A program made the translations under genes and the position numbers. Positions 15,251 through 63,725 of a DNA stretch of 64,000 nt are shown here, piece by piece. Source of the DNA: an uncultured Gammaproteobacteria bacterium (GTDB lineage Bacteria; Patescibacteriota; Patescibacteriia; Patescibacteriales; UBA12465); contig CAYYDR010000001.1 in assembly GCA_964470695.1 (NCBI GenBank), positions 139,405 to 203,404 of the forward strand, written 5' to 3'. Position 1 is the stretch's first letter. Every line of letters begins with the position of its first letter. Below the pieces are notes generated by a model, which worked only from the letters and a program-made list of their open reading frames with translations, ran no database searches and was not told the DNA's origin.

Positions 15251-15655
15251 ATGAGCAAATTAATTATTTATACCGATGGCGGCGCGCGCGGTAACCCTGG
15301 TCCAGCTGGCATTGGCGCGGCTATTTATGACGATAAACATCAGCCAGTTGCCGAAGTTTCTCAGTATTTAGGAGTAGCCACTAATAATCAGGCGGAGTAT
15401 AAGGCTTTAATAGCCGCTTTAGGCAAAGCGCAGGAGCTAGGCGCGACTGAGCTGGAATGTTATCTAGATAGTGAGTTGGTTGTTAAACAATTAAACCGTG
15501 AATATAAAGTAAAAAACAAGGACTTAGCGCCCCTGTTTTTAATGATTCATAATTTATCTCTGAGTTTTAAGAAAATCAGTTATCGGCACATACCGCGAGA
15601 GAGGAATAAGGAAGCGGATCGGCTAGCTAATGAAGCGATGGATAGGGGGCGTTAA
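15251..15655 (+). CDS. rnhA: Ribonuclease HI
   Basis: IYTDGGARGNPGPAGIG, NNQAEYKALI and NKEADRLAN supply the DEDD catalytic residues in type-1 RNase H spacing. Confidence 0.9.
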   Translation: MSKLIIYTDGGARGNPGPAGIGAAIYDDKHQPVAEVSQYLGVATNNQAEYKALIAALGKAQELGATELECYLDSELVVKQLNREYKVKNKDLAPLFLMIHNLSLSFKKISYRHIPRERNKEADRLANEAMDRGR

Positions 15656-15673
15656 TTACACGCCCCTTTTTTT
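15646..15673 (+). terminator. Putative rho-independent terminator for rnhA, embedded in the 3' end of the convergent gene
   Basis: Stem GGGGCGT (15646-15652) pairs with ACGCCCC (15660-15666), followed by a T-run (15667-15673). The hairpin overlaps both stop codons. Confidence 0.5.
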
Positions 15674-16818
15674 AATATTCCCGCGCCAGTATTAGCGTTA
15701 GCGTCTTTTATTGAGTTTCCGCTCCAAATATCAATTCTTCTGCCCTTGATTCCACCCCCAGTGTCTTTAATAGTATAAGTTTTCCCTTTAAAGCAGACCT
15801 TGGTTCCGGGCGGAAGATTGGTCTGGCAGTTGCTAGGGCCAGCAATATCACCGATTTGCGGCTCGCCGCCACTGGACATGGCATTACAATAAGGGACGTT
15901 AGAAGCGAAATATTTACAAGGCTTATAACCAGGGTAAGTTTTTCCGTATAAGAAATCACAATTTTTAGTGGTATCTCGGTCGTCGCCGTTAGGGCAGGAA
16001 CACTGCATTCCGATATCGCAAAAGAATTTTTCGGTATTTTCCCAAGCTGGTTTATAGTATCCAGTGGCATAAAACTCTATACCGTTAGTTAGTTCTTGAT
16101 CGGTAGCGCAAGTCGCATTTTTATAAGTCTCGGCCTTAGAACCGTGTCTAGCTACCGCCAGCGTATTAGCAAGTTCGGCCATTTCAATGTTTCCAATGCT
16201 AATCGGGTTAAGCTGTATTAAGTTAGGGTTAATTTGGACTAGGATGATATAAGAGGAGCTAAGAATAATTAGTCCAGTAATGCTGCCAAGGATGAGTTCT
16301 TTGGCTTGGGTAATCTTAGAAGCGTCGCCGCTAGATACGAGCCATAAGACGCCGCCCGCCATTAGAACTATGGCCGCTAAAATACCGGCGACACTTAATC
16401 CATAATTAAAAATAGCTAAGATATATTCTGATAACCAAGGAAATTGGTAGAAACGGCTTCCGTCTGAATTCTCGCTGTATTTAATGGAAGAGGTTGGCGT
16501 TAATGTTAAGCCGGGAATAGAAATTTGTAATTCGGGCATGATGAATTTCGGCGGAGTTGGCGCTTTTGGTTCAACATAAACACTCCCAGGACAACAACAA
16601 GACATTGGAGTCTGGAAGCCGCCTAGTGGGACTGGCGGTAAGGCCGGGCATTTAGTTGTAGAGTCGCTATGTTCGTTGTCTTGGCATGATATTTTTCCGG
16701 CTGGGACAGAATAAATTACTCGCCAAACACAATTAGTATCAGTGGTCTGAGCTATAGCCATGTGCACAGGAAGAAAATAAATTGATAGGAAAAAGATGAT
16801 AACGATTATTTTTTTCAT
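15652..16818 (-). CDS. Secreted Cys-rich protein with a VirB2/TrbC-like TM hairpin core and a C-terminal 3D (MltA/RlpA-like lytic) domain
   Basis: It has a signal peptide (IYFLPVHMAIAQ) and a CCC motif. The two-helix core is YGLSVAGILAAIVLMAGGVLWLVSSGDASKITQAKELILGSITGLIILSS. The C-terminus YATGYY...TIKDTGGGIKGRRIDIWSG matches the 3D-domain pattern. Confidence 0.55.
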   Translation of the reverse strand: MKKIIVIIFFLSIYFLPVHMAIAQTTDTNCVWRVIYSVPAGKISCQDNEHSDSTTKCPALPPVPLGGFQTPMSCCCPGSVYVEPKAPTPPKFIMPELQISIPGLTLTPTSSIKYSENSDGSRFYQFPWLSEYILAIFNYGLSVAGILAAIVLMAGGVLWLVSSGDASKITQAKELILGSITGLIILSSSYIILVQINPNLIQLNPISIGNIEMAELANTLAVARHGSKAETYKNATCATDQELTNGIEFYATGYYKPAWENTEKFFCDIGMQCSCPNGDDRDTTKNCDFLYGKTYPGYKPCKYFASNVPYCNAMSSGGEPQIGDIAGPSNCQTNLPPGTKVCFKGKTYTIKDTGGGIKGRRIDIWSGNSIKDANANTGAGILKKGACN

Positions 16819-17690
16819 ATTTTATATCTTTTGATATTATTTTCTACTGATTTTTGAATGAGTTCTACATCGGCTGGTTTAAGATGTTTAAAGCGCCCCT
16901 GTTTTTTTAAATATTCTTCCACCGGTTTGGGGGTAAAATTAGCGCTGATGCTGGAGGCGCTTAATCGCCCATTAGTATATTCTAACAGCGGGTATAATCC
17001 GGTTTGAGCGGCCAGCTTGCCCATCATTACTCCTTCATCATTGCCGATTTTCCAGCCGGGCATACAAGGAGATAATATCTGGATATAGCTTGGGCCATCA
17101 GTCGCCAGAGCTTTTTTTATTTTATTAGTTATATCATCGGGAAATCCGGCTGTAGATTGGGCAACGTATTTTAGTCCGTGTGCTAAAGCAATGGCTAGCA
17201 TATCTTTTTTTACTTGGGTAGAACCGATTGCCTCTGAGCCTTGAGGAGAGGTAGTAGTATTAGCGCCGTAAGGTGTCGCGCCCGAGGCCTGGATGCCGGT
17301 GTTAGAATAGGCCTCCGTGTCATAACAGATATATAAAATATTTTCGCCTCTTTCCCACATGCCGCTGATAAGCCCGATGCCGATGTCGTAGGTGCCGCCG
17401 TCGCCACCTTGTATCACTACTTTGGTATTCTGATCATTTTTTTGTTTGAGGGCGGCCTTAATGCCGGAGCCGACTGAAGAGGCATTCTCAAATAACGAGT
17501 GTATCCAGGGGAGTCCCCAGGCACTTTGTGGATAGGCCGTGGTAGTTACTTCTAAACAACCAGTCGCGTTGGCAATAATGACATTTTTATTTAGACCACG
17601 CATCACCGCCTGAGCCGCCACTAGTTGGCCGCAACCAGCGCAAGCATTGTGCCCGGGAGCCAGAAATTTTATAGGTTTTTTATCACTCAT
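16815..17690 (-). CDS. porB: Pyruvate/2-oxoacid:ferredoxin oxidoreductase, beta (TPP-binding) subunit
   Basis: PGHNACAGCGQ and the TPP motif GGDGGTYDIGIG are present. At 291 aa it is typical of PorB. Confidence 0.9.
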   Translation of the reverse strand: MSDKKPIKFLAPGHNACAGCGQLVAAQAVMRGLNKNVIIANATGCLEVTTTAYPQSAWGLPWIHSLFENASSVGSGIKAALKQKNDQNTKVVIQGGDGGTYDIGIGLISGMWERGENILYICYDTEAYSNTGIQASGATPYGANTTTSPQGSEAIGSTQVKKDMLAIALAHGLKYVAQSTAGFPDDITNKIKKALATDGPSYIQILSPCMPGWKIGNDEGVMMGKLAAQTGLYPLLEYTNGRLSASSISANFTPKPVEEYLKKQGRFKHLKPADVELIQKSVENNIKRYKI

Positions 17691-17702
17691 AATCTTTATT
17701 TA

Positions 17703-18959
17703 TTAGTAGCAGCAATATAGCCCGGTTCCACAATCTCGCCCGCCAGTATCAGGCGTTTTATTATTATCACAAGTTACATTATCGGAGAATACTGCATTTA
17801 TAATGAGACTTGGTATGAGAACCGGATTAGGGACGGATGAGGTTGTTTTGAGATGGGCTTCTGTAGTACACTCCCCGCCGTTAGTTCCACACGGCTCGCC
17901 TTCCTTGCCATCATTTTCATAACATTTTCCATTATAGCAATAGTAATTATCATTCATATTATAGCAGGTATCGCCGTCTTTAACTGAAGTGCAATCAGCC
18001 GTAACATTGAAGCAGTCCGCTACTCCAGCGCAACGCTGGTTTTCTAAGAAATCTCTGATACCAGTTACGCCGGTCTGAGTAAACGGACAATTTGGTTTAA
18101 TGGTATCAACGCAGCTAGTGTATTTATCACTAGGGTTGTGATGGCTAGCAGTTGTGTAAGCGCAACACCCTTCAATTTCACATTTTGTGCCGTCAGAATT
18201 TTTTCGGGCATTAGTTATAAATGTGTCCGGCGTTTTACATTCATTCTCACTAGTCATTTTTGCGCTGCCAGACGATTGGCAGCAGCCGAAAATTAAAACA
18301 TCAACATACTTTGTCCTGATTGATTTCATGGCTAATAGGTCGGGGTTAATAGTATTAAGGAGCATCCAGGAGCCAAATAGAATAACCATGCCGGCCAAGC
18401 TGCCAATAATCAGTTCTTTAGCTTGGGTAATTTTAGAATCATTGCCGTTTGAAACTAGCCACAAAAGTCCGCCGCCCATTAAAACAATAGCCGCCAGAAT
18501 TCCTACCACGGCCATGCCGTAATCATAGAAAGCTTTTACATATCTGGCTAAAAGATCACTAGTCATTACTCCCCCCTGGAAGCTGCCGACCGCCGTTGAA
18601 CTACCCTGTTCGTATTTAATGCCGGGCATTGGTATCTGCGGCGTAAAGTTTAGAGGGGTATAATCGCTATTTATGGAAGTATTTTTTTGGGTAGTATTGG
18701 TTTTTTGGTAAGTGGTGGCCATAGCCGCGCAGCAGCAGATGCCAGGGCCGGTTTTGTTGCATTTATTAGGAGTAGTGTTATCTTGTTTTTCTGAGCTTGA
18801 ACAGGCCGTAGTTGTATTTAGTCCGCCTACCCAGCGGCATTCAGGATGCTGGTTATAGGTTGTTACCATCTGAAGGTTTGTTTGAGCGAGCGTTAAACCG
18901 GGCAGTAGTAAACAAATAACTGAAAATAAGGCCAACGTTGTTATTTTTTTCGTGGTCAT
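17703..18959 (-). CDS. Secreted, extremely Cys-rich protein with a VirB2/TrbC-like TM hairpin core (paralog of 15652-16818)
   Basis: It has a signal peptide (LLLPGLTLAQ) and a CCC motif. Its core YGMAVVGILAAIVLMGGGLLWLVSNGNDSKITQAKELIIGSLAGMVILFGS is near-identical to that of the paralog. The C-terminal ~200 aa are packed with Cys and match no domain I recognise. Confidence 0.5.
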   Translation of the reverse strand: MTTKKITTLALFSVICLLLPGLTLAQTNLQMVTTYNQHPECRWVGGLNTTTACSSSEKQDNTTPNKCNKTGPGICCCAAMATTYQKTNTTQKNTSINSDYTPLNFTPQIPMPGIKYEQGSSTAVGSFQGGVMTSDLLARYVKAFYDYGMAVVGILAAIVLMGGGLLWLVSNGNDSKITQAKELIIGSLAGMVILFGSWMLLNTINPDLLAMKSIRTKYVDVLIFGCCQSSGSAKMTSENECKTPDTFITNARKNSDGTKCEIEGCCAYTTASHHNPSDKYTSCVDTIKPNCPFTQTGVTGIRDFLENQRCAGVADCFNVTADCTSVKDGDTCYNMNDNYYCYNGKCYENDGKEGEPCGTNGGECTTEAHLKTTSSVPNPVLIPSLIINAVFSDNVTCDNNKTPDTGGRDCGTGLYCCY

Positions 18960-20155
18960 ATTTTTCCGATAAATTTTAAATAATTATTATTTTTCGCTGC
19001 ATCCTTAATAATAGCTATAATCATTTTTTCGGTTACATCTCGGCCCCCTAGCCCGACTATGTAGTTTTTGAGTTTGGGATTATTTTTTAGTTTTAAAGCC
19101 GCGATGTCGGAATATAATGGGCCACAGTGGCCGAGACTAATGGCTTTTTCAATTACGGCAATATTTTTAGTCTTACTTAAAATTTTTGTTATTTCTTCGC
19201 GGGGGAAGGGGCGGTAGACTTTTATCTTTAGCAGGCCAACTTTTTTTGAACCTTTTATTGTTTCAATAATTGTGCCCGCGATTGATCCCAGGGAGACAAT
19301 AATGATTTCTGGATTATTTGGTCCGTAATATTCAATTAGGCCATTATCAATTCGGCCACCAGCTTGTTTTTTTATAGCTAAAGTTTTATTTAACAACTGG
19401 TATTCTTTTTTTATTAAATTTAGGCTGCTTAATAAATCATCGTGCAAGTCAGATCGCGTTTCCATATAATGGGCGGGAGTAAAAAAGGCGCCCATGGTAA
19501 CTGGTTCCTCGGGATTCAGATAAGTGCCGGACTCCGGTTTATAATCAGGTAAATATTTTTTGATTAATTTAGAATCAGGAATAATGACAGGCGCGTAAGA
19601 GTGGGTCAAAATAAATCCGTCTACGTTTACCATGACCGGCAATTTTAACTGCTCGGCGATTTTATAGGCTAAAATATGTTGGTTAACGGCTTCTTGGTGG
19701 TCAGCCGCAAATAATTGTATCCAGCCGGCGTCGCGTATGCTCATCACGTCGCTATGGTCGTTCCAAATATTAATTGGCGCGGAAATAGCGCGATTAGCGC
19801 AGGTCATTACTATTGGCAGGCGCATCCCAGCGATATTAAAAATAACTTCGGCCATGAGTAGAAGTCCCTGGGAGCTAGTGGCGCTGTAAGTTCTGACTCC
19901 TGTGGCGCTGGCGCCTAGAACGATAGAAGCGGCGGCAAATTCGCTTTCCGCTCTTACATATTCATAATCCGCCTGGCCGTTCGCTTTAAATTCCGCCAAA
20001 TCTTCAACGATGTGGGTTTGCGGGGTTATAGGATAAGCGGAAACAACCGCGGGAAAAATATTTTTAATAGTTAAAGCAATCGCCCGCGAGCCTTCTAGAA
20101 TTTGTTTGTTTTCTTTGTTCATAATATCAAAAGACTTTTCTCTAATAATCTTCAA
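18956..20155 (-). CDS. porA: Pyruvate/2-oxoacid:ferredoxin oxidoreductase, alpha subunit
   Basis: LEGSRAIALTIKNIFPAVVSAYPITPQTHIVE is the typical PorA N-terminus. An alternative ATG at 20122 (MNKENKQ) would remove the 14-nt overlap with porD. Confidence 0.9.
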   Translation of the reverse strand: MKIIREKSFDIMNKENKQILEGSRAIALTIKNIFPAVVSAYPITPQTHIVEDLAEFKANGQADYEYVRAESEFAAASIVLGASATGVRTYSATSSQGLLLMAEVIFNIAGMRLPIVMTCANRAISAPINIWNDHSDVMSIRDAGWIQLFAADHQEAVNQHILAYKIAEQLKLPVMVNVDGFILTHSYAPVIIPDSKLIKKYLPDYKPESGTYLNPEEPVTMGAFFTPAHYMETRSDLHDDLLSSLNLIKKEYQLLNKTLAIKKQAGGRIDNGLIEYYGPNNPEIIIVSLGSIAGTIIETIKGSKKVGLLKIKVYRPFPREEITKILSKTKNIAVIEKAISLGHCGPLYSDIAALKLKNNPKLKNYIVGLGGRDVTEKMIIAIIKDAAKNNNYLKFIGKI

Positions 20156-20453
20156 CCATTTTTATGGCTTTAACTGGGCACTCATGGACGCATAAGGCAC
20201 AGCCCTTGCAATAGTCGTAGTCAGTTAGTGGTTTTAATTTTCCATTTAATTCCGCTCTCGCTTCCATTTCAATGCAGTTCTCTGGACAAATTTTCGCGCA
20301 GAGAGAGCAGCCTATGCATACGTCGTAATCAGTAATGGGTTTTTGGGTACGCCAAGGACCCGTCTTGTTGGCTAAGGTGCTATTTGGTTTGGCGGTCAAA
20401 TTAATTTTGGGCTTTTTCATAATCTTTAGTGACAGCTTGGATATTTTTATCAA
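20142..20453 (-). CDS. porD: Pyruvate/2-oxoacid:ferredoxin oxidoreductase, delta subunit (2x[4Fe-4S] ferredoxin)
   Basis: It has two CxxCxxCxxxCP clusters (CIGCSLCAKICP and CKGCALCVHECP). The start is uncertain; an alternative ATG at 20420 gives MKKPKINL. Confidence 0.88.
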   Translation of the reverse strand: MIKISKLSLKIMKKPKINLTAKPNSTLANKTGPWRTQKPITDYDVCIGCSLCAKICPENCIEMEARAELNGKLKPLTDYDYCKGCALCVHECPVKAIKMVEDY

Positions 20454-20949
20454 TTATAGTTTGGCCTTTATCATGAAATTTTTCGGCAATGGCTTTTTTA
20501 AGTGACTCTAGACTAATTAAGCCGCTATGCTTAGCAAAGGCGCCTAAAATAACAGTATTAACAATGTTTTTACCGAATATTTCTAAGGCAATTTCAGTGG
20601 CCGGCGTGAAATATAAATGTTTAAATCTTTTTTTTAGTTCTGGCCATTTATTAGAGGCGGCGTTAATTATAACTAGAGTATTTTTATCACTGCCATAGAA
20701 AACATCTACTGTGTCTAGTAGGCTAGAATCTTGAATAATTAAGGCGGTCGGTTTATAAATTTGTTCCCGGGTAATTATTGGTTTGTTATCTAAGCGGGCA
20801 AAAGCCTGGATGGGCGCGCCTGTTCTTTCCACGCCAAAATTAGGGAAGGCCTGGGCCTCTCGGCCATCATAGAAAGCGGCTATAGCAATTAATTCAGCAG
20901 CGGTCACGACTCCTTGCCCGCCGCGCCCATGGATACGAATCTGTTCCAT
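20401..20949 (-). CDS. porG: Pyruvate/2-oxoacid:ferredoxin oxidoreductase, gamma subunit
   Basis: IRIHGRGGQGVVTAAELIAIAAFYDGREAQAFPNFGVERTGAP is the canonical gamma-subunit N-terminus. Confidence 0.9.
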   Translation of the reverse strand: MEQIRIHGRGGQGVVTAAELIAIAAFYDGREAQAFPNFGVERTGAPIQAFARLDNKPIITREQIYKPTALIIQDSSLLDTVDVFYGSDKNTLVIINAASNKWPELKKRFKHLYFTPATEIALEIFGKNIVNTVILGAFAKHSGLISLESLKKAIAEKFHDKGQTIIDKNIQAVTKDYEKAQN

Positions 20950-20950: not shown

Positions 20951-21697
20951 TTATTTTATAATCCCTGTTACTAATTCTCTAAATTTTTGTTCTGATACGG
21001 CGCCGGCAAATTGGTAATTATTGACAAACCAGGTCGGCGTGCCGACGATTTGCATTTTATTGCCATCTTCGTAATCCTGTTTGATTTGGTTGAGATATTT
21101 TTTATTAGTTAGACAGTCGGTGAATTGTTTGCTGCTGAGGCCGAGTGATTCGGCTAACGCTATTAATTTACCAGGTCTATCAGCATCAGCAGTGGTTAAA
21201 GCATCTTGATTTTGGAAAAGTAAATCATGCATTTCCCAAAATTTTCCCTGTTCTCCGGCGCAGCGAGCAGACATGGCTAAGTCTATTGAGTCATTATTGC
21301 GCAGATAATCGCGCCAAACTATTTTTATTTTATCTTTATACTCATTAGCTATTTTAGCTATTACCGGCGAGGACTCTTTGCAAAATGGACAGGCAAAATC
21401 CGCGAATTCTACAATTGTAATTTGCGGGTTAGCCGATCCGCGATAATAATTAGTGCCATCGCCATTGATAGTTCTAAGATATTCTTGGCGCGTTTGTTCG
21501 GTTGTAGAATCGGTCTGCCCGGCTAAAATTTGTTTAACCCGATTAACTACGTATAGGCTGGATATGGTCAAAATAATGAAAATTATAATTAAGGAGACTA
21601 TGATTAATATGCCCCACCATTTTTTATACCAGGGAGCGAGCATATTTTTATGTCTGGCCTTCATGGCCGCATATTTTAGTCTTTCATCTAGGCTCAT
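20951..21697 (-). CDS. Membrane-anchored DsbA/BdbD-family thiol:disulfide oxidoreductase
   Basis: It has an N-terminal TM (WWGILIIVSLIIIFIILTISSLYVV), a thioredoxin-fold CPFC active site and the GTPTWFVN cis-Pro-loop region. Confidence 0.85.
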   Translation of the reverse strand: MSLDERLKYAAMKARHKNMLAPWYKKWWGILIIVSLIIIFIILTISSLYVVNRVKQILAGQTDSTTEQTRQEYLRTINGDGTNYYRGSANPQITIVEFADFACPFCKESSPVIAKIANEYKDKIKIVWRDYLRNNDSIDLAMSARCAGEQGKFWEMHDLLFQNQDALTTADADRPGKLIALAESLGLSSKQFTDCLTNKKYLNQIKQDYEDGNKMQIVGTPTWFVNNYQFAGAVSEQKFRELVTGIIK

Positions 21698-26597: not shown

Positions 26598-29500
26598 ATG
26601 TCTTATTTTTTATTTTCCAAAAAAGGCGGACAGCCAAAAACTCCTAGTCGATTAGGAGGGCTGTTATTGACCTTGTGTTTTGTAATTGTTCTACTAGCTC
26701 CTTTTAGGCCAGCTCAAGCGCAGCTCGGCGGAGTAGTGACTGATATTGGTAATACGATTGTTAATACCGCTAGTTATATTTGGGACAAAGCTTCTGATGT
26801 AGCCTCTTATCTCTGGCAGAAGGGAGGCTCAATCGCTTTTCAGCGCACCTTAGCTTCCGCCTTGAATAAAATAGCTTATGATGCCGCTAATTATATCGGT
26901 TCAGGCGGCAAGGGTCAGAATCCGCTTTTTGTCACGCAAAATTTAGGTGATTATTTGGCTCAGATAGGCGATGAAGCGGCCGGTCAATATATTGAAACTT
27001 TTGTTAATAATTTAAATACGGATACTAATGAAGGCTGTTCGGCTAGATTGCAGAGTTGCCGCGAAGATTGTTTAAAGACTCAGAGCGGCGGCGTAGAAGA
27101 CGATGCCACTAGGCTTACTCTTTGTAATACTGACTGCGATAAAGGGGCCACTGCTTGTGTCGCTCAAAATCCTGGCAATGGCGCCGTTACCCCGTCTTTT
27201 AATGTTTGCAGTCCTTCTTCTTTAGAGGCTAAGGTAAAAATTGGTTTGGGATTAGTTGATCAGAATAGGCCGCAAGCCCCTAATTGTACGGCTTCTAAAA
27301 TGATTAAAGATTGGGGCGATGATATTCAGAAAAAAATAGATAGTTTTAAAGACCCGGAGTATTTAACTACTTTCGCGAATATTTTTGATCCACGCTCTAA
27401 TGATTTGGGCATATATTTCATGGCTCAGTCCGATATGTCTAGCCAGGCTAATATTAAGAAGGAGATAACTGGCAGTGATTTTGTTAGAACTGGCGGCTGG
27501 CTTGATGTTAGAAATATCGCTGGCGAATTAGAAGGAGTCCCAGGCGAAGCTCAGCGAGCGGCTAATACCGCTAGTCAGGCTAGACAAGAAGCCTTGGGTA
27601 AGACTACGGGCGATATTTTAGTTGATGCGGCCAATGTTTTTCTTAATCAGTTATATATTTCCGCTTTTGATAATCTTTTACGCAGTTTAGCCAAGAAGAG
27701 CGGCGGTGCTAATAATAGTAGTAATTCCGCGGCTGGTAATCGCGAGGGCGATCCTAAGGTTCTCTACGGTGAATCAGCTTTAAGAGAAGTTACGAATGCT
27801 TTACTGCAACCAAAATTTGCCGTTAGAGCCGATTATGATATTTTGTCGGAATTATCCATGTGCCAGAATCCTAAGAGCCCTGGTCCTAATGACTGTGTGA
27901 TTGATGATAAATTTAGGCAGGCAATTTCCGAAAAGAAAACTGTAGCGGAAGCTATAAAAGATGGTTATCTGCATGGTGATTGGCAGTTGACTACTGATAA
28001 TAACCAAAGTAATTATTCTTTACGCAATATTTCCGTTTTACGCAAATATCGTATTTTACCGGTCGGCTGGGAACAAGCGGTTAGTAAATCTCAAGCCCAG
28101 GGGCGCCGAGTTACTTTAAAAGATTTGGTGTCTTGTTTTGATTATAATGATGACTATTCGGATTTCAGCTCCGGGTTTGATCAAACCGATCAGGGCTGGT
28201 GCCAGGGCTTAGTTGATCCTAACTGGGTTTTGAAGGCGCCTTTGAATTATTGTAAAAAAGAGGGAATAAGTTCCCAGATTATTAGCAGTAATATTATCCC
28301 TGGCATTAAGGGGCAGAATGGAGTAGCTGATGTTTTAAGTTCCCTTAATGTTATTAGAGCTGAGAATTACTGCGCTGATAATCAGACCTGTATTAAAGAG
28401 AAGGATGATGGCAGCTGTGAAGCCTATGGCTACTGTAACGAAGAAAAAAGGACTTGGGATTTTGGCAGCGATTCTTGTGCGCCTATAAATAATACCTGTC
28501 AGTCATTTACTAGTTCTACTGGCCAGTCTGTTTCCTATCTGGAAAATACTTTAGACTACGCGCAGTGTAATGCTGATAACTCCGGCTGCCGCCGTTATTC
28601 TTTGTCAGGCGCTTATGCTACTTCAACCGGCGTTACTACTTGGGATGGCGTTAGGAGTCTTTATTTAAATAAAAATTTAAGCGATTGCGATAATAAAGAA
28701 GAAGGCTGCACTGGTTTATTAAGAGTTAAGCCAGCCTGGGGCGCTAATTTAATAATGAACGCTAATTTTAACAATGATTTAGTGGGCGATGTAAATCAAG
28801 GGAATACTCTTAATGACTGGCCGCTGGTTAATAGCCAAGCCTCTATAGTAGACGGCCAGGATCCTATTGTTAGAATGGATAAGGCCATGAAGTTAGTATT
28901 TTCTAACGGCGGTGGTCTATATTCTTCAAATACCCAATCTCTTTTGCCGGCTAATTTCCAGGTTATTACGGGCCAAGCCTATACTTTAAGCGCTGATGTA
29001 TATTTGGTAGCTGGCGATAGCGTGACTATCGCGATGGGCCCAGAAGCGGATGGCTTTAAAAAGGTGATGACGGATAAAAATGGTTGGCAGACCCTATCCG
29101 TTACTAGACAGGCTTCTAGCTCCTATAATGAACCGCGGTTCAGTATCATAGGTTCTATTGCGAGCGGAACAGGTACATTTTATGTTAAAAATATTAAATT
29201 TGAAATGGGTGATTGGGGTACCGGCTATACTCCGTATGGTTCGTTTAGATTTTATGAAAAATTATTGCCCTCTTATTTAGAAAAAACTTGTTATGTAGAC
29301 TCTAGTAGCGCCAGTAAAAATTATTCTTTGAAGGCGGATGCTCCGGCCGTCTGTTCTAACTATGCTAGACGCTGCAATAAAGACGAAGTTGATTGTGAAT
29401 CATATCAATCCACTAAAGATAATTTTGTCGTACCAGCCAAAGTCATCAGCAGTGATTATTGCCCAGGCGAATGCTTAGGTTATGATGTCTATATTTCTAA

Positions 29501-43282: not shown

Positions 43283-44767
43283 ATGATCTTAGATTATCGC
43301 CATCATAAAATGGTTAAAATGGGACACTGGTCTCTGCGGTGTTTAGATAGTGAAAATTGGCACGCCGAAGTAACTAGCGCTAATTTTTATAAGATATTTG
43401 GTTTTTATAAAGGGACAACGGCTTTACACGAAATTAGCAAGGGTTTACAGCATTGTTATTTTCCGCAGTATTTTTTTGATAAGATTTACGCCTATATCAC
43501 TAAGGTCAATAAAAAAGATTATCGCTCCTTGGCTAAAATTTTACTTAAATTTTATGATTTGAAAAAGATCGCCAAGCGAGAAATTCCTAAAATTAGAGTG
43601 TCAGACTATCGTCAGCTCAGTAATCGGGAATTAGTAAAATTATATAAGAAAAATAGAGACTGGGCCCATCGCGTTACGGTCTATGACCAGTTCGGCTGGA
43701 TAGCGGAAGAGTATTGGGAACCGTATATGTCTCAAGTTTTATCCAAGCTAGGGGTCGCTAGGGGATCTAGTGAATATAATAGAATTCTTTTTATACTGAC
43801 TAAGGCTCAGGAAATATCTACTACTCTTGAGGAAAAAAGAGATACTATTTTGGCGGCTTATAAAATAAAAATTAAACAGCAGACCATAAAACAGGCTAGT
43901 AAGTTATTGGTTAAAAAATACGCCTGGATGCCGGTTTTCACTTTCGGCGTGCCTTGGGATGAAAAATATTATGAACAGCAATTAGCCGCTTTAATCAAAA
44001 AGAAGGCTAAAGATTTGTGGGCTGAATATCAGGTCTTGGTGGACTATAAAAAAATCCAGCAGCAAGATATTAAAGATGTTTTGCGAGAATATAAAATTAA
44101 ACCTCGCGATTTGCAGTTATTTTTTGACTTTGGCCTAGCGCTTGACGCGCGCAATGAAGCGGAGTATTTGGTTAGTTTAGCTGGTTTTTATTTATTGCCG
44201 ATTTATAAGGAAATAGCTCGTCGTCTTTATATTTCCGTTACTCAATTGCGCAATCTTTTTGAAAAAGAAGTGGAAGCGGCACTACTTAGCAAATTAGACG
44301 TTCAAGATTGCCTTAATAAAAAAGGGGAAATTGTCGGCTGGGGCTTTAATTATAAAATGGATAAACGCTTTAATTTATCGCCGGCTGAGGCCGCTAAATT
44401 ATTTAAACATTTAGAAAAGCATTCGCTTAATTTACAGGGCCACGATGAGGAAAGGGGCAAGTGCGCCAGCCCTGGTAAAGTCACGGGCCGAGTAAAAATT
44501 ATTGATTCACCGGCTGAAAATAGCAAGGTTAAGGACGGCGACATCTTAGTCTGCCACGCTACTACGGTTGATTATTTGCCGGCCATGAAGAGGGCGGTTG
44601 CTTTTGTGACTGAAGTCGGTGGCTTAACTTGTCATGCGGCGGTAGTAGCCCGGGAATTTGGCGTTCCTTGCATCGTTTCCCTTAAAAATGCTACTAAGAA
44701 TTTAAAAAATAATAGTTTGGTAGAGTTAAACGCTGACGATGGAACTATCAGGGTGATTAAAAAATAA
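43283..44767 (+). CDS. Swivel-His paralog 1: unknown ~390-aa N-domain plus C-terminal PEP-utilizer phosphohistidine mobile domain
   Basis: The C-terminus GDILVCHATTVDYLPAMKRAVAFVTEVGGLTCHAAVVAREFGVPCIV matches the PEP-utilizer phosphorylation-site pattern G-G-x-T-x-H-A-A-[IV]-x-A-R. It has no ATP-grasp and no PEP-binding barrel. Confidence 0.8.
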   Translation: MILDYRHHKMVKMGHWSLRCLDSENWHAEVTSANFYKIFGFYKGTTALHEISKGLQHCYFPQYFFDKIYAYITKVNKKDYRSLAKILLKFYDLKKIAKREIPKIRVSDYRQLSNRELVKLYKKNRDWAHRVTVYDQFGWIAEEYWEPYMSQVLSKLGVARGSSEYNRILFILTKAQEISTTLEEKRDTILAAYKIKIKQQTIKQASKLLVKKYAWMPVFTFGVPWDEKYYEQQLAALIKKKAKDLWAEYQVLVDYKKIQQQDIKDVLREYKIKPRDLQLFFDFGLALDARNEAEYLVSLAGFYLLPIYKEIARRLYISVTQLRNLFEKEVEAALLSKLDVQDCLNKKGEIVGWGFNYKMDKRFNLSPAEAAKLFKHLEKHSLNLQGHDEERGKCASPGKVTGRVKIIDSPAENSKVKDGDILVCHATTVDYLPAMKRAVAFVTEVGGLTCHAAVVAREFGVPCIVSLKNATKNLKNNSLVELNADDGTIRVIKK

Positions 44768-44768
44768 T

Positions 44769-58289: not shown

Positions 58290-58326
58290 AGAAACAGGAT
58301 AATCATCCCTGTTTCTCTTTTATTTT
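58290..58326 (+). terminator. Rho-independent terminator closing the swivel-domain/ATP-grasp operon
   Basis: AGAAACAGGAT (58290-58300) pairs with ATCCCTGTTTCT (58305-58316) with one bulge. A T-rich tract CTTTTATTTT follows. Confidence 0.65.
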
Positions 58327-58342
58327 GAGGTTTTTTCTCTTA

Positions 58343-60043
58343 ATGTTTGACTATCTACAACAATTTAATAATCTTGCTAAAGACCTGCGTGATCGGGTTT
58401 CTTCGCCGTCGGTGATGGCCATAATTGCGGATTTAGAAAGTAAATATCGGGTTGATTTGGCCATGACGGTCATGAAGGTGATGATTAAAAGTTTATCGGC
58501 TAAAAATTTGCCGGCTTATTTTATTAGTGAGTTAGGATTACCGTTAGATTCGGCCGAAGCCTTAGCTCAGGAAATGAAAGAAAAAATTTTTGTTTCCGTG
58601 GCTGATTATTTAGGACTCAGTTCGGAAATGCGCGCCCTAGATTTAGATAAAGATATTAATATTTTAATTAAAGAATCAGGATTAGTTCTGCCTAGTGCCG
58701 TTCTTATCGGCCGTTTCAAAAATATTGTTTCTACTTATCTGCGCGGCGTGCGCAATAAGATTGATACCAAGAATAGTTTATCTAAGGATGTTAAAATAGG
58801 CGGTTTAAGTTTAAGTTCAGCAGAAGTAGACAGGGTATTGAAAGTTTGTGATACTCAAAAATTTGCTAGTTTAAAAATTTCTCCTGATGCCGCGCCTCAG
58901 CCGACGGTCGCGCCCGGCAGTCGTTTAGATAAAATTATTGCTAGCTCTGATAATATTATTGTTAATAAGGACGGTAAGGCGGAAGAATATAGCTTGAAAA
59001 ATGCTTTAGCAACCGGCCAGATTAAAATCCCGGCCTCTATTTCAACTTCAACCCCAACCTTAGCTCCAACTCCAACTCCAACTTCAACTCCAACTTCAGC
59101 GCCAGCTTCAATTTCGCCCAGAATCCCCGTGTCTGCGCCTATTAGGCCAAAGACTATTTTAGATACTAAGCATGAAATATCGGCTCCTCGCCCCCAATTA
59201 GACCTTCCAGTCGGCCATATGCCCGTTCCTACGCCACCGACTCCTCCTGCCGCGCCAATTTCAAAACCAGCTCCAGTTAATCAAGTCAGCCAGGTGAACC
59301 AAGTTAATAAGTCGGTTGTTTCACCGTCTCCGGCGGTTAATAAGATCGCGCCCGCCTCTCAATCTATTTCTAAACCCAGCAGTCTATTCAGTCGGTTTAC
59401 TTCTAAATTGTCGCCTTTAAGAGGCGCTGCTTCTCAGCCTATAGTTAAAAATAAAGTACCAAATATTAGTCAGCCTATATCTAACTCGTCCTTATCTATT
59501 AAGCCTGCGATGGCTCAGTCTGCGGCTAATGCTAATCTATTAGCTAACTCAGGACTAGCTAAGTCTGCTAATTCCTCCATATTGTCCCCGGCCTCTCCGG
59601 CACCTGCCGCGTCGGCTTCGGTCCAGGCTCCTAAAGCCGCGGCCCCTTCATTAACGAACAGACCAGCCCCAGCTTCTCCTGCCCGCCCGCAGATGCATGA
59701 CATTAAACCAGTGCCTAAAGTCATGGGCCCGATTGAAGAATTGCAGTTTTTAGATGTTGTTAATTTCCGCCGTTTAGGCAAAACACCAGGAGAATCAATC
59801 ACGAAAGTTTTCATGAAAATAAAATTGTTGGAAAAAGATGGCTATGATAAAATGATTGCAGGCATTCAGGCTTGGCGGCAAAGTCCGGTTAATCGTCTTT
59901 ATTTGCGCCTAGGCCAGGAAGCTGTAGCGCGAGGAGTTCCTTTTAAAGAATCAGTCGCCCTGCGCCAGAAAAATAATCAGGAATATCTCAGCATGGAAGA
60001 AATAGAAGCGATTGTCTCCCTTAATAGCCGCTTGGTATTTTAA
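58343..60043 (+). CDS. Hypothetical protein with a central Pro/Ser/Thr/Ala-rich low-complexity region
   Basis: I chose the ATG at 58343; the track uses TTG at 58325, which lies inside the terminator tail. A structured N-terminal ~200 aa is followed by a ~270-aa P/S/T/A-rich linker and a conserved-looking C-terminal ~110 aa. Confidence 0.55.
   Translation: MFDYLQQFNNLAKDLRDRVSSPSVMAIIADLESKYRVDLAMTVMKVMIKSLSAKNLPAYFISELGLPLDSAEALAQEMKEKIFVSVADYLGLSSEMRALDLDKDINILIKESGLVLPSAVLIGRFKNIVSTYLRGVRNKIDTKNSLSKDVKIGGLSLSSAEVDRVLKVCDTQKFASLKISPDAAPQPTVAPGSRLDKIIASSDNIIVNKDGKAEEYSLKNALATGQIKIPASISTSTPTLAPTPTPTSTPTSAPASISPRIPVSAPIRPKTILDTKHEISAPRPQLDLPVGHMPVPTPPTPPAAPISKPAPVNQVSQVNQVNKSVVSPSPAVNKIAPASQSISKPSSLFSRFTSKLSPLRGAASQPIVKNKVPNISQPISNSSLSIKPAMAQSAANANLLANSGLAKSANSSILSPASPAPAASASVQAPKAAAPSLTNRPAPASPARPQMHDIKPVPKVMGPIEELQFLDVVNFRRLGKTPGESITKVFMKIKLLEKDGYDKMIAGIQAWRQSPVNRLYLRLGQEAVARGVPFKESVALRQKNNQEYLSMEEIEAIVSLNSRLVF
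59041..59110 (+). repeat. Imperfect hexanucleotide tandem repeat (ACTCCA/ACTTCA/GCTCCA) encoding (T/S/A)P repeats
   Basis: The DNA reads ...gctccaactccaactccaacttcaactccaacttcagcgccagcttca... and encodes TPTLAPTPTPTSTPTSAPAS. Confidence 0.7.
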
Positions 60044-60049
60044 TCTCAT

Positions 60050-60469
60050 ATGCAGCAATTTACCGTACCGCAATTTATTGATGTAGAGAATAAGATTATC
60101 GGTCCGATTACTGTCCGACAGTTTATTATTTTCTTGGCGGCGGCCATAATTCTCGGTATTAGTTATCGGTTATTTGATTTTTCTTTATTTACTACTATCG
60201 CAATTGTTGTCCTGGTTTTAGCGGCTCTATTTGCCTTTGTTAAGATTAATGGCCAGCCTTTCCACCTTTTTGTTTTAAGCGCTGTTCAGACTTTGCGCCG
60301 TCCGCGCGTTAGAATTTGGAATAATCGTTTAATGGCGGCCGGCAAAGATGAGGATTTGGTAGCTGTAAAGCCGCAGCGAGCCATGGTTGCGCCTAAAGTT
60401 TTTAAAACTTCGCGTTTAGCGGAATTGTCCCTAGTAGTTGATACTAAGGGAAGATATCGCGGTGAATAA
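60050..60469 (+). CDS. PrgI/VirB3-like small T4SS membrane protein
   Basis: MQQFTVPQFIDVENKIIGPITVRQFIIFLAAAIILG followed by a second TM is the pattern of Gram-positive T4SS PrgI-type proteins. It sits upstream of VirB4. Confidence 0.55.
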   Translation: MQQFTVPQFIDVENKIIGPITVRQFIIFLAAAIILGISYRLFDFSLFTTIAIVVLVLAALFAFVKINGQPFHLFVLSAVQTLRRPRVRIWNNRLMAAGKDEDLVAVKPQRAMVAPKVFKTSRLAELSLVVDTKGRYRGE

Positions 60470-60494
60470 TATTTAGCCAGAGAATAAATATATT

Positions 60495-61175
60495 ATGTCG
60501 GAAAAGAATTTGGCGAAAAATAAAATAGGCGTTTCTACTCAGCAGTATTTAAATATCGCTGAGGTTAAAGATAATACTATTGTCATGAAAGACGGCACGT
60601 TGCGGGCCGTTTTACTCGTATCTAGCATTAACTTCGCCTTAAAGAGCGAAGACGAACAGAACGCGGTTATTAATTCTTATGCCAGCTTTTTAAATAATAT
60701 TAGTTTTACCTTGCAGATTGTTATCCAGTCGCGGGAATTAGATATTGATAATTATTTAACTTACTTGAAAGACAAGGAAAAAGAGCAGACCAATAAATTA
60801 TTAAAGGTCCAGACGGCTGATTATATTGAATATATCAAAGAATTGATTTCTTTGGGCAAGATAATGAATAAGCGTTTTTACGTCGTGGTGCCTTATGACC
60901 CCATGACAGATAAGCATAAGGGATTTTTAAGTTTAGTCGGCGAAGCCTTAAAGCCGGCGACGATTATTAAATTAAAAGAGAAGACTTTCCGCAGCTATCA
61001 GGAAATGCTTGATAGGCGAGTTGATAGCGTGGTGGGCGGGCTGGAATCTATGGGCGTGGCCGTGGCTCGCTTAGATACGCAAAGTTTAATTGAGCTTTAT
61101 TATAAGACCTATAACCCCGAAACCGCTAAGAATCAGGAACTGGTTGATTTGGATAAAATTAGAGTAGACAGATAA
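60495..61175 (+). CDS. VirB4/ConE-type ATPase, N-terminal domain encoded as a separate ORF
   Basis: LNIAEVKDNTIVMKDGTLRAVLLVSSINFALKSEDEQNAVINSYASFLNNISFTLQIVIQSR matches the N-terminal pattern of Gram-positive VirB4 homologs. It ends 4 nt before the ATPase ORF. Confidence 0.5.
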   Translation: MSEKNLAKNKIGVSTQQYLNIAEVKDNTIVMKDGTLRAVLLVSSINFALKSEDEQNAVINSYASFLNNISFTLQIVIQSRELDIDNYLTYLKDKEKEQTNKLLKVQTADYIEYIKELISLGKIMNKRFYVVVPYDPMTDKHKGFLSLVGEALKPATIIKLKEKTFRSYQEMLDRRVDSVVGGLESMGVAVARLDTQSLIELYYKTYNPETAKNQELVDLDKIRVDR

Positions 61176-61179
61176 AACT

Positions 61180-63075
61180 ATGATTGATTTTAATAAAGAT
61201 GATAAAACTAATAAGCTAACTTTAAATACCCCGATTACTTTGGGTCCTAAGTCGGCTATGCCGGCGATTGAGTCTGATCCTCAGTTGACCAGGGAAGTAA
61301 TTGAAGAAGAGAAGGCTTTTAGGCGCGGCGTTTTATCGGTCCGCGATATTATTGCTCCGGCCAGCCTTAAGGTTGAGGCTAATTATTTATTGCTGGGCGA
61401 TAAGTTTTTAAGAACCATTTTTGTTATCAGCTATCCCCGCTATATTTCCGTTGGCTGGTTTGCGCCTATCATTAATCTTAACTTTACCTTTGACGTCTCC
61501 ATGTTCTTTTATCCGGTTAAGAGCGCTATTATTTTAAAACAATTAAAAAATAAAGTTGGTGCTTTAGAGGCTCAGATTATTTCCGATGCGGAAAAGGGAG
61601 CAGCTCGTGATCCGCTTAGAGAAACCGCTCTGCGTGATATTGAATATTTGCGCGACGCGCTTACTCAGGGGACAGAGAAATTTTTTCAATTCGCTCTTTA
61701 TGTTACTTTGTACGAAAAAGATCTAGAAAGCCTAGATCGTTTGTCGGATCAGGTTGAAGATGTCTTTGGTTCACGCCTAGTTTATTCCCGCCGAGTTTAT
61801 TATCAGTCTGAGCAGGGCTTTAATTCTACTTTACCGCTGGGCGACGATGAATTATATATTACTTTTAACATGAATTCGTCGCCGATCGCTTCGTCTTTCC
61901 CGTTTATTTCTAGCGAACTGACGAGCGATAAGGGTATTTTGTATGGTATTAACCGCCATAATAACAGTTTAATTTTATTTGATAGATTTTCTTTGCAAAA
62001 CGCTAATTCAGTCGTCTTCGCGACTTCTGGCGCTGGTAAAAGTTATGCTATTAAGCTGGAAATATTGCGCTCATTAATGCTTGGTTCAGATGTTATTGTT
62101 ATTGATCCGGAATATGAATATAAGCATTTAGCTGAAGCAGTCGGCGGCACTTATATTAATATTTCTTTAGCTTCGGAGAATAAAATTAATCCTTTTGATC
62201 TGCCGCGCTCTATAGGCGGGGAAGCGAAGCCTAAGGATATTATCCGCAGCGCGGTCATTACTCTTAAAGGCTTGGTCCGTTTAATGCTTGGTAATCTGAC
62301 TTATGATGAGGATTCTATTGTTGATCGCGCCCTATTGGAGACTTACGCGAAAAAAGATATTACCCCTGATTCGGATTTATCAAAAATAGAAGCGCCGGTT
62401 ATGTCTGACTTTGAGCAGATCTTAGATGGCATGGAGGGCGGTGCCAATTTATCGTTGCGTTTAAGAAAATATACGGAGGGAACCTTTGCTGGGTTGCTCA
62501 ATAGTCCGACTAACGTGGAAATGAATAATCAGCTGGTTTGTTTCTCGGTCCGCGATTTAGAAGATGAATTGCGCCCTATCGCCATTTACACCATTATTAA
62601 CTATATTTGGAACGTGGTGCGGAGCGAAATGAAAAAGCGCATCCTGGTTATTGATGAGGCCTGGTGGATGATGCAGCACGAAGACAGCGCCAAGTTTATT
62701 TTTGCCCTAGTTAAGCGCTGCCGCAAATATTATTTAGGGGTCACGACTATTACGCAGGATGTAAACGACTTTTTAACTTCGCCTTACGGCCAGGCTATTG
62801 TTAATAATTCTTCTTTGCAGATATTACTCAAGCAGTCTCCAGCCGCGATTGATTTGATCCAGAAAACTTTCATGTTAACGGAAGGAGAAAAATATTTATT
62901 GCTAGAATGCGGTTTAGGGGAGGGAATATTTTTTGCCGGCAACAAGCACGTAGCTATGAAAGTGGTCGCCTCCTATACTGAGGACCAATTAATTACTTCC
63001 GACCCGCGCCAGTTACTAGAGATAGAGGAAGCCAAGAAAGAATTTGAAGAAAGCCAGCAGCAAGAAACTAGTTAA
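61180..63075 (+). CDS. virB4: VirB4-family T4SS ATPase (middle and ATPase domains)
   Basis: FLRTIFVISYPRYISVGWF (middle domain), Walker A ATSGAGKS and Walker B RILVIDEAWWMM are present, with TTITQDVNDF downstream. Confidence 0.8.
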   Translation: MIDFNKDDKTNKLTLNTPITLGPKSAMPAIESDPQLTREVIEEEKAFRRGVLSVRDIIAPASLKVEANYLLLGDKFLRTIFVISYPRYISVGWFAPIINLNFTFDVSMFFYPVKSAIILKQLKNKVGALEAQIISDAEKGAARDPLRETALRDIEYLRDALTQGTEKFFQFALYVTLYEKDLESLDRLSDQVEDVFGSRLVYSRRVYYQSEQGFNSTLPLGDDELYITFNMNSSPIASSFPFISSELTSDKGILYGINRHNNSLILFDRFSLQNANSVVFATSGAGKSYAIKLEILRSLMLGSDVIVIDPEYEYKHLAEAVGGTYINISLASENKINPFDLPRSIGGEAKPKDIIRSAVITLKGLVRLMLGNLTYDEDSIVDRALLETYAKKDITPDSDLSKIEAPVMSDFEQILDGMEGGANLSLRLRKYTEGTFAGLLNSPTNVEMNNQLVCFSVRDLEDELRPIAIYTIINYIWNVVRSEMKKRILVIDEAWWMMQHEDSAKFIFALVKRCRKYYLGVTTITQDVNDFLTSPYGQAIVNNSSLQILLKQSPAAIDLIQKTFMLTEGEKYLLLECGLGEGIFFAGNKHVAMKVVASYTEDQLITSDPRQLLEIEEAKKEFEESQQQETS

Positions 63076-63092
63076 AAGATAATATAAAATAT

Positions 63093-63725
63093 ATGCAAAA
63101 TAATCGCCGCAATATCGGCATCTTAATCATTATTATCGGCCTTATTCTGATTGCTCTGATAATTTATTTCGGCTTCTTGAAAAAGGCGCCATCCGCTGGG
63201 CCAGTTGAGGTCGCCACTACTACTCCAGTAGTTACGCCGCAATTGCCGTCTGGGCCGGAAACCAGTACTACGACGCCTAGCGATAAGCCGCGCGACTATC
63301 AGAAATATGATATTTCTAAAGAAGCGCCGCGATCAATTGGAGCGTCTGATTTAGCTAAGCGGGCCATGCTTTATTGCGAACGCCTCGGTTCTTATTCCAG
63401 CCAATCTGACTACAGTAATTTTACTGATCTAAAAATTTATATGACCGATAGCCTGCGTTCCTGGTCCGATAAATATGTTGCTGAACTGAAGAGCAAGATT
63501 AAGAGCAATACTTATTACGGTATTGAAACTAAGGCTTTGACAACTGAAGTTAACAGCTTTGATGATAAGGCGGGGACAGCGGAAATTACAGTTACTACTG
63601 AGCGCCGGGAAAGTACGGAAAAAATTGGCGGCGGCGAGCCGTTTATCCAGAAAATTAATCTTAGTTTTGTAAAAACGGCTAGTGGAGACTGGCTAATGGA
63701 TAAAGCTTACTGGGAAAATAAATAG
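63093..63725 (+). CDS. Hypothetical membrane-anchored protein with a Thr/Pro-rich stalk
   Basis: It has an N-terminal TM (IGILIIIIGLILIALIIYFGF) and a T/P-rich linker, followed by a ~140-aa globular region. It follows VirB4. Confidence 0.5.
   Translation: MQNNRRNIGILIIIIGLILIALIIYFGFLKKAPSAGPVEVATTTPVVTPQLPSGPETSTTTPSDKPRDYQKYDISKEAPRSIGASDLAKRAMLYCERLGSYSSQSDYSNFTDLKIYMTDSLRSWSDKYVAELKSKIKSNTYYGIETKALTTEVNSFDDKAGTAEITVTTERRESTEKIGGGEPFIQKINLSFVKTASGDWLMDKAYWENK

Follow-up and report, generated by a model that had tools for sequence, protein, structure and literature searches.

Proteins A and B are encoded by two genes on the minus strand of a 64,000-nucleotide stretch of DNA, the window of this study, from a Patescibacterium of Falkowbacteria/ABY1 kind (GenBank assembly GCA_964470695.1, contig CAYYDR010000001.1, positions 139,405 to 203,404). 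The two proteins share an exported Cys-rich head and a two-helix membrane hairpin, and end in unrelated Cys-rich tails, that of protein A being a predicted cell-wall-cleaving domain. Comparison of related loci shows directly that the hairpin is a conserved carrier on which the tail is exchanged as a cassette. On balance, protein A is probably a peptidoglycan cutter held by its hairpin and stabilised by disulfides, with a catalytic cassette that can be exchanged, and it may open the surface peptidoglycan locally for the type IV secretion system (T4SS)/pilin apparatus. The whole interpretation rests on sequence and predicted structure, and most of the comparison genomes are metagenome-assembled; loci of related genomes are designated here by L numbers and individual relatives by P numbers.

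Two paralogous proteins share a head and a membrane hairpin

The two genes and the parts that they have in common are the following.

15652..16818, minus strand: protein A, 388 amino acids (aa); signal peptide and Cys-rich head, then the PF18895 hairpin and a tail of predicted 3D/MltA lytic transglycosylase type
17703..18959, minus strand: protein B, 418 aa; signal peptide and Cys-rich head, then the PF18895 hairpin and a Cys-rich orphan tail
16750..16818, minus strand: signal peptide of A, residues 1-23; Sec type, with predicted cleavage between AIA and QTT and a hydrophobic segment at residues 1-25, read from the sequence
16441..16749, minus strand: head of A, residues 24-126; predicted extracytoplasmic, with 6 Cys including the CCC triplet 74-76, the motif PKFxMPxLQIxIPG and beta strands modelled at a predicted local distance difference test (pLDDT) of ~80-89
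16216..16440, minus strand: hairpin of A, residues 127-201; predicted membrane helices 127-161 and 166-196 joined by the loop SGDASK, with INPNL at the end; PF18895 match and recombination junction
18333..18554, minus strand: hairpin of B, residues 136-209; helices 136-169 and 174-204, ending in INPDL

Both open reading frames (ORFs) lie where a previous sequence-only reading of the window had placed them. That reading overlooked porB (16815-17690), located between the two genes. In BLASTP, A (residues 2-213) and B (residues 4-221) are 34% identical, with an E value of 4e-29 that is far beyond chance; the two are therefore true paralogs in their first ~220 residues. Beyond that region BLASTP found zero similarity between them, in agreement with the complete divergence after the core that had been claimed. 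No further paralogs were found within the window with a hidden Markov model (HMM) of the subfamily hairpin.

The common part begins with the signal peptide, whose predicted cleavage in B falls between TLA and Q. In the AlphaFold2 (AF2) models each head is ~100 residues long and contains beta strands as well as 6-7 Cys, and the CCC triplet occupies positions 74-76 in A and 75-77 in B. Immediately before the hairpin, QISIPGL in A and QIPMPGI in B share the form Q-I-x-(I/M)-P-G; the IP(M)PG motif of the sequence-only reading is present in both proteins, its true consensus being the looser I-x-(I/M)-P-G. The hairpin cores are 51% identical over 86 residues, and far more so across helix 1 and the inter-helix loop, which is short and contains Lys in both proteins (SGDASKITQAK in A, NGNDSKITQAK in B). 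Signal peptide, CCC head, two-helix core and INPxL ending, all described previously as shared, were found in both proteins. The sequences FYATGYYKP and DTGGGIKGRRIDIWSG occur in A, and CYNMNDNYYCYNGKCYENDGKEGEPCG in B. Cys makes up 4.1% of A and 6.5% of B, compared with 1.2% in the other ORFs of the window. A cleaved signal peptide followed by a hairpin predicts that head and tail are exposed outside the membrane while the loop stays inside, and the AF2 models, proposed earlier as a check, have a topology compatible with surface exposure of both domains.

The tail of protein A is predicted to have an MltA-type fold

15655..16203, minus strand: tail of A, residues 206-388; predicted double-psi beta-barrel (DPBB) of the MltA/3D kind with 10 Cys, from AF2, Foldseek and Pfam 3D
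15730..15765, minus strand: codons of D352...D363 (DTGGGIKGRRID); D363 is the equivalent of the catalytic Asp (MltA D308, YuiC D162) and D352 that of MltA D297

The proposal that protein A ends in a 3D domain is borne out by Pfam matches among its orthologs, by the AF2 model, by the structural likeness to MltA and by the invariance of D363. In A itself the Pfam 3D family (PF06725) matches residues 336-374 with 20.3 bits (E 6.6e-4), and among the 59 A orthologs 29 are matched at E<=0.01, the best with E 2.2e-6. AF2 modelled the tail with a pLDDT of 90-98, and the best Foldseek matches of A in the PDB were the E. coli MltA structures 2gae, 2ae0 and 2pi8 (E 1.7e-4 to 5e-4, probability 1.0), followed by 3czb, LtgG 6qk4, 7esj, YuiC 4wjt (probability 0.99, template modelling score 0.44 on the target) and expansins. 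Sequence profiles of full-length A, of its tail and of the core gave no significant match in the PDB, YuiC being reached at E 0.33 through the DTGxxIKGxRxD motif only; hence, MltA was identified by fold comparison only.

The DTGGGIKGRRID motif of A aligns to ADTGSAIKGNRLD of YuiC. In YuiC, D162 (MltA D308) is the catalytic carboxylate, D151 (MltA D297) binds the -2 sugar, D129 (MltA D261) is the third Asp and T91 (MltA T99) orients the catalytic Asp (PMC4499186). Both D352 and D363 are invariant in 59/59 sequences, with the same 11-residue spacing as D151 and D162 of YuiC. Thr252 in FYATGYY is also invariant in the 59 sequences and is equated with YuiC T91/MltA T99 by motif position only. Two points weigh against this reading: the 3D score of A lies under the Pfam gathering threshold of 23.8 bits, and the first Asp of the triad (MltA D261, YuiC D129) is replaced by Gly-Pro (IAGPS in A versus the canonical AVD). 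The IAGP form is also found in most close orthologs of A, with IAAD or VAVD kept in some orthologs and in distant relatives. From the modelled structure we conclude that tail A should adopt the 3D/MltA-type lytic transglycosylase fold with its catalytic Asp intact, and it is very probable that it cuts peptidoglycan as an MltA-type lytic transglycosylase by means of D363.

With E. coli MltA (GH102) and with YuiC and YabE of the Firmicutes Sps/3D group, tail A has in common the DPBB fold, the DTGxxIKGxRID motif with the catalytic and the sugar-binding Asp and, as judged by motif position, a conserved Thr in (Y)ATGY. It differs from them in its marginal sequence likeness, in the change of the first Asp to Gly-Pro and in five predicted disulfides, and it is devoid of the insert domain of MltA. 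The anchors differ as well: an N-terminal pilin-like hairpin in A, a lipid in MltA and a plain signal peptide in YuiC.

The hairpin carries exchangeable cassettes

In all 231 homologs the tail is C-terminal to the hairpin. The tails are of the 3D type in 113 of them and of the B type in 90, followed by NlpC/P60 (7), VanY/M15 (5), a weakly SLT_3-like lysozyme (4), Peptidase_C39_2 (3), Peptidase_M15_4 (1) and Amidase_2 (1), with the remainder in small unclassified groups. The Pfam scores of these tails on the carrier are 35.5 bits for VanY, 53.8 for Peptidase_M15_4, 25.2 and 29.6 for NlpC/P60 and 53.9 for Amidase_2; Peptidase_C39_2 reaches 52.8 bits, its activity on the wall being assumed, and the SLT_3 match is weaker, at 19.4 bits.

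The replacement can be followed at a single position, the last slot before the RNase H gene, which holds a 3D tail in the window, VanY in L073, NlpC/P60 in L004, Amidase_2 in L074 and a lysozyme-like domain in L081. The DNA of L004 and L074 is 98.4% identical over 7.4 and 4.1 kb and shares nothing across the ~540-bp tail region; the proteins are 98% identical through residue 161 and unrelated thereafter. Similarly, L081 and L082 have flanks that are 84-91% identical and heads and hairpins that are 83% identical, with a lysozyme-like tail in the former and a 3D tail in the latter. Across the family, tails are unrelated in approximately 35-40 of the 96 pairs whose cores share at least 80% identity. 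The breakpoint lies just past INPxL and the replaced segment ends at the stop codon. No immunity-like ORF was found downstream of the cassette in the window or in L004, L073, L074 and L081. The exchange of the tail and the DsbA partner of these genes had both been overlooked in the sequence-only reading.

Polymorphic toxins (CdiA-CT, Rhs, LXG and the T6SS effectors Tae and Tge) are organised like A, with an N-terminal carrier and a C-terminal cassette that is replaced in close strains at a sharp breakpoint, here INPxL, and peptidoglycan-degrading cassettes also occur in polymorphic toxin systems. In contrast with them, the cassette of A is not accompanied by a cognate immunity gene, the next gene being the convergent RNase H gene; its carrier is a membrane hairpin and its position in the core genome is fixed. 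The interchange of 3D and lysozyme-like domains on a conserved scaffold, as between L082 and L081, also recalls the non-orthologous domain displacement of Rpf and Sps proteins (Ravagnani et al. 2005, PMC1084345). Here, however, the exchange takes place at one locus, in genomes with 84-91% identical flanks and not between phyla, and the scaffold is a pilin-like hairpin.

The tail of protein B is a fast-evolving Cys-rich orphan

17706..18317, minus strand: tail of B, residues 215-418; beta-rich, 20 Cys, no known fold or family

No domain had been recognised at the end of protein B, and this was confirmed: tail B has no Pfam or NCBIfam match, and Foldseek searches with B in the PDB and the BFVD viral library returned nothing below E 0.1. 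AF2 modelled the tail with mostly good confidence (pLDDT 80-93) as rich in beta structure. When 1.84 billion representative proteins were searched exhaustively with phmmer, only 19 matches to tail B came up, nearly all of them in the same position behind a hairpin. A word-indexed protein search with the 204-aa tail alone gave zero matches, parent protein included; the full-length query had recovered the parent, and the blank is probably a filter or index artefact of the Cys-rich sequence.

At 24 syntenic loci 207 of the 276 pairs of tails from the B slot are without significant similarity, most of these tails retaining 18-20 Cys, whereas the hairpins are ~55% identical and the A tails 45% identical with all pairs significant. 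By these comparisons tail B is a lineage-restricted, fast-evolving, disulfide-scaffolded domain, and from the pattern of its divergence one may guess at a role in binding or recognition. The B protein of the window has an A-like head that is absent from most orthologs of the B slot.

The hairpin and the pilins

The hairpins of A and B match PF18895 (T4SS_pilin) with 25.3 bits (E 1.6e-5) and 23.9 bits (E 4.4e-5), respectively, the gathering threshold of the family being 26.6 bits. At E<=0.01 the family matches 57/59 A orthologs (best E 1.9e-8) and 59/59 B orthologs (best E 4.2e-10), and the threshold is exceeded by the relatives P0117 (29.9 bits), P0118 (29.5), P0160 (30.2), P0103 (28.3) and P0191 (32.8). 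Some relatives of A and B are labelled 'pilin' by NCBI. By its sequence matches the hairpin is assigned at family level to PF18895, the 'T4SS pilin' family of Patescibacteria.

The sequence-only reading had seen in the core a VirB2/TrbC-type pilin. The topology is that of VirB2 by hydropathy and in the AF2 models, with a signal peptide, two hydrophobic helices, a short basic loop and both termini outside, and this part of the proposal stands together with the PF18895 match. No homology of the core to bona fide VirB2/TrbC proteins was detectable: the TrbC/VirB2 family of Pfam (PF04956) matched neither A nor B at E<=1, the core profile aligned to six annotated plasmid VirB2/TrbC proteins with an hhalign probability of 2.2%, both alignments being shallow, and neither the PDB profile search nor Foldseek matched any solved pilin. 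In the HMM searches recommended earlier, PF18895 and 3D were thus matched, under threshold in A and B and with the support of their orthologs, and TrbC was not. Moreover, VirB2 pilins are small, with ~70-120 aa in the mature form and without extra globular domains, and are encoded next to virB3/virB4; A and B have 388 and 418 aa, with ~100-aa heads and 180-200-aa tails, and in the window are not adjacent to those genes. Judged from sequence, A and B share the topology of VirB2, and homology to VirB2 is not detectable.

Closer to A and B are the VirB2-like pilins of Patescibacteria (PF18895; arrays of Southlakia epibionticum; PMC12102498, PMC10633639), which have in common with them the family, a signal peptide followed by a two-helix hairpin with a short basic loop, the presence of several divergent paralogs per genome, often in arrays, and the restriction to Patescibacteria. 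In comparison with these pilins, A and B are 3-4 times larger, contain a Cys-rich head and a C-terminal domain of 180-200 aa, and are encoded away from virB4 in a por operon.

Within a genome the hairpins of A and B have a median identity of 56%, compared with 46% across genomes (23 related loci, the non-independence of the pairs being ignored), and they are as similar to each other as orthologs are among themselves. 

This likeness fits concerted evolution or co-adaptation and is compatible with, without proving, co-assembly of A and B, as is the hypervariability of tail B. Recent gene conversion between A and B in the genome of the window was rejected, since the two genes share no long tract of identical DNA.

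The same likeness, which would fit co-assembly or gene conversion, bears on a rival explanation in which the hairpin would be a genuine pilin, pulled from the membrane by the VirB4 machinery and polymerised or placed at the tip of a pilus. The exchangeable hydrolase of A and the variable, adhesin-like domain of B would then be displayed past the cell's own wall, as polymorphic effectors that attach to a host bacterium and breach its wall. The layout of an N-terminal carrier and a variable C-terminal enzyme with the breakpoint at a conserved motif is that of polymorphic toxins, tail B is hypervariable with its Cys scaffold kept, and essential VirB2-like pilin arrays do exist in Patescibacteria, as in Southlakia epibionticum (PMC12102498, PMC10633639). 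However, every subunit would have domains of ~100 and 180 aa at its two ends, a steric burden for a helical filament of the VirB2 type; no solved pilin is matched by structure or sequence, an immunity gene is not present and in this lineage the genes lie outside the T4SS cluster. We regard such a displayed, polymerised effector as decidedly improbable.

Genomic position and relation to the T4SS

16815..17690, minus strand: porB, thiamine pyrophosphate-binding beta subunit of a four-subunit pyruvate:ferredoxin oxidoreductase (PFOR); between B and A, its stop overlapping the start of A (AAAATATGA)
18956..20949, minus strand: porG (20401-20949), porD (20142-20453) and porA (18956-20155); porA lies directly upstream of B, its stop overlapping the start of B
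20951..21697, minus strand: DsbA-like thiol oxidoreductase, membrane-anchored, with a CPFC motif; first gene of the operon and conserved partner of the hairpin genes
15644..15668, no strand assigned: GC-rich hairpin with T-runs where A and the RNase H gene converge; resembles a bidirectional terminator, operon end
58325..63725, plus strand: T4SS-like genes; a 572-aa ORF, a PrgI/VirB3-like gene (60050-60469), VirB4 ORFs (60495-61175 and 61180-63075) and a 210-aa membrane protein

The operon, on the minus strand, has the order DsbA-like, porG, porD, porA, B, porB, A. Both junctions between a por gene and a hairpin gene are identical AAAATATGA stop/start overlaps. A and the convergent RNase H gene overlap at their ends, A by its stop, and no ORF intervenes. 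The flanks are core genes (rpoB/C, MurJ, LepA, RecJ, exonuclease III, LeuRS and KsgA). The order DsbA, porGDA, hairpin gene, porB, hairpin-3D gene, convergent RNase H, RecJ, LepA, MurJ is repeated in ~22 species-level genomes and in further metagenome contigs, and relatives without por genes read DsbA, B-like, A-like (L004, L012, L074, L081 and L082). DsbA adjoins the hairpin genes in all close loci and in the distant L033, L096 and L100. An origin in a mobile element was rejected: phage and plasmid collections gave zero tblastn matches and the core-genome synteny is conserved.

In the T4SS-like locus the 572-aa ORF is rich in Pro, Ser and Ala and has no Pfam match, and VirB4 is split into ORFs of 226 and 631 aa; radA follows just past the end of the window (contig L005 of the neighbouring gene). 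Neither a pilin nor a hydrolase was found among these genes (58325-63725), as had been said before for the hydrolase. This minimal locus matches the ABY1-class pattern; PF18895/VirB2-like genes are near virB4 in 1135 of 1948 assemblies, and most such genomes are without VirB1 (PMC12102498).

Among ~10 distant loci, 3D-tailed relatives are found 2-7 kb from virB4 in L031 and L033. In L033 VirB4 is followed by a homolog of the 210-aa ORF, a hairpin gene whose tail is Cys-rich, one further gene, DsbA and a hairpin-3D gene; L031 has a three-gene hairpin array ~5 kb from PrgI-like and VirB4 genes. The ~8 other distant loci have hairpin arrays, some with DsbA, and no virB4 within 10 kb. In the distant, Parcubacteria-type L034 (JAPLYG010000012.1), L099 and L101, 4-5 hairpin genes stand in tandem, one or two of them 3D-tailed; these 3D tails keep all three aspartates, and in one 552-aa array member an additional Cys-rich segment separates the hairpin from the 3D domain.

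VirB1-like hydrolases of monoderm bacteria (TraG of pIP501, PrgK of pCF10 and CwlT of ICEBs1) resemble A in being membrane-tethered, extracytoplasmic and modular, in their varied chemistries (glycosidase, peptidase) and in a proposed role in opening the wall for a T4SS. They are built of SLT and CHAP/NlpC domains on a single N-terminal helix anchor and are encoded inside the T4SS operon, whereas A has a 3D/DPBB fold, not a lysozyme-like one, a hairpin anchor and a locus separate from the T4SS. Relatives within the family do bear NlpC/P60 and weakly SLT_3-like tails.

Several observations weigh against the preferred reading of a wall-opening module for this apparatus. A and B each score 1-3 bits under the PF18895 threshold, and the hhalign comparison given above relates the core to no plasmid pilin. 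Big domains flanking the hairpin on both sides are atypical for a polymerising pilin. The genes of A and B lie 42 kb from virB4, amid core genes in the por operon; the same por-embedded position distant from the T4SS is found in ~25 related genomes, and virB4 is within 10 kb in only 2 of the ~10 distant loci. The earlier suggestion that A supplies the missing VirB1 function agrees with the 3D-tailed relatives beside the T4SS in those two loci; for A and B, located outside the T4SS cluster, it stays an inference. That the hairpin-hydrolase module serves the T4SS/pilin apparatus, with a VirB1-like activity fused to a VirB2-like carrier, is accordingly put forward as a tentative proposal with chances slightly short of even.

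The position of the genes is also an argument for a second rival explanation, a housekeeping autolysin, in which the hairpin would be a mere anchor, A a membrane-tethered 'space-maker' acting on the cell's own wall in growth or division and B an accessory or regulatory protein, with no tie to the T4SS. The neighbourhood of core genes (MurJ, LepA, RecJ, RNase H and LeuRS) is conserved in ~25 genomes, the overlaps with the por genes imply constitutive co-expression, and the 42 kb that separate the locus from virB4, the missing immunity gene, the missing VirB2 homology and the missing phage and plasmid matches all fit with it. On the other hand, bond specificity is rarely swapped in the autolysins of close strains, whereas this slot alternates glycosidase, amidase, endopeptidase and carboxypeptidase; tail B diverges fast, beyond recognition in 207 of 276 pairs, and relatives stand beside virB4 in L031 and L033. 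A purely housekeeping role seems to us unlikely, with a better claim than the displayed effector.

A model for the module

In the reading that we prefer, that of a hairpin-anchored cutter with exchangeable cassettes, A and B would be exported through Sec and, after cleavage of the signal peptide, would keep both helices in the membrane with the basic loop inside and head and tail outside. The DsbA-like oxidoreductase of the operon would form the many disulfides of both proteins. We hold with high confidence that A and B are exported and hairpin-anchored with their disulfide-rich heads and tails outside, and that the DsbA of the operon is a plausible oxidant. Tail A, as a lytic transglycosylase of the MltA/YuiC type, would cut glycan strands using Asp363, and tail B, a rapidly diverging disulfide-knotted domain, would most plausibly act in binding or recognition. 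The hairpin would be the conserved carrier and the catalytic tail a cassette recombining at the INPxL junction. DsbA, B and A would together form a conserved three-part envelope module, whose task would be the local opening of surface peptidoglycan for the T4SS/pilin apparatus of Patescibacteria. The target may be the cell's own wall or that of a host, and both are considered.

Other features of the locus and the window

The PFOR operon porG-D-A-B is interrupted by the gene of B, with that of A behind it, in ~25 genomes; this coupling of exported, wall-active proteins to a cytoplasmic redox enzyme is an unexplained curiosity. A third hairpin gene is present at the locus in L002/L025, L008, L012, L017, L084 and L087, located on either side of the A-type gene, between it and porB or beyond it; hence, the copy number at the site varies. 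Rfam and tRNA scans of the window were empty.

Elsewhere in the window, a giant secreted protein of 2821 aa (26598-35063, plus strand) contains 101 Cys (3.6%) and a single CBM_4_9 match; no relationship was found between it and the Cys-rich parts of A and B. Together with DsbA, this giant suggests heavy extracellular use of disulfides. Seven paralogs of 476-626 aa (43283-58246, plus strand) have as their sole Pfam match the C-terminal 'mobile' domain of phosphoenolpyruvate (PEP)-utilising enzymes, PF00391. HD and HAD hydrolase genes are interspersed in this array, and a stand-alone PPDK_N ATP-grasp gene then follows at 57308-58246; array and PPDK_N gene look like an unusual, split and expanded system of the PEP-synthase/pyruvate phosphate dikinase (PPDK) kind.

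Significance

The PF18895 hairpin and the 3D domain each belong to a known family. The architecture, its association with DsbA and with a hypervariable paralog, the strain-level exchange of cassettes and the por-interleaved locus appear to be undescribed; no paper on hydrolase-tailed members of PF18895 was found in the literature, of which our coverage is incomplete. The T4SS and the VirB2-like pilin arrays are essential in the sole genetically tractable Patescibacterium (PMC12102498, PMC10633639).

Should the PF18895 hairpin after all be a polymerising or tip subunit of an armed pilus, on which A shows an exchangeable wall-degrading cassette (lytic transglycosylase in the window, amidase, endopeptidase or carboxypeptidase in sister strains) and B a hypervariable, disulfide-knotted domain for host recognition, which we consider a long shot, the epibiont could attach to its host bacterium and pierce the wall of the latter, and the turnover of cassettes would track the chemistry of that wall. 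In the preferred reading, of local wall opening for the T4SS/pilin apparatus, a pilin-like hairpin covalently joined to at least four or five classes of peptidoglycan-active enzyme is a candidate for the missing wall-opening activity in pilin-bearing genomes without VirB1. It also offers a new example of cassette-type diversification outside the classical toxin systems. The exchange of wall-cutting enzymes suggests how Patescibacteria may open their own or the host cell wall, and provides a testable route to how ultrasmall epibionts breach either of them.

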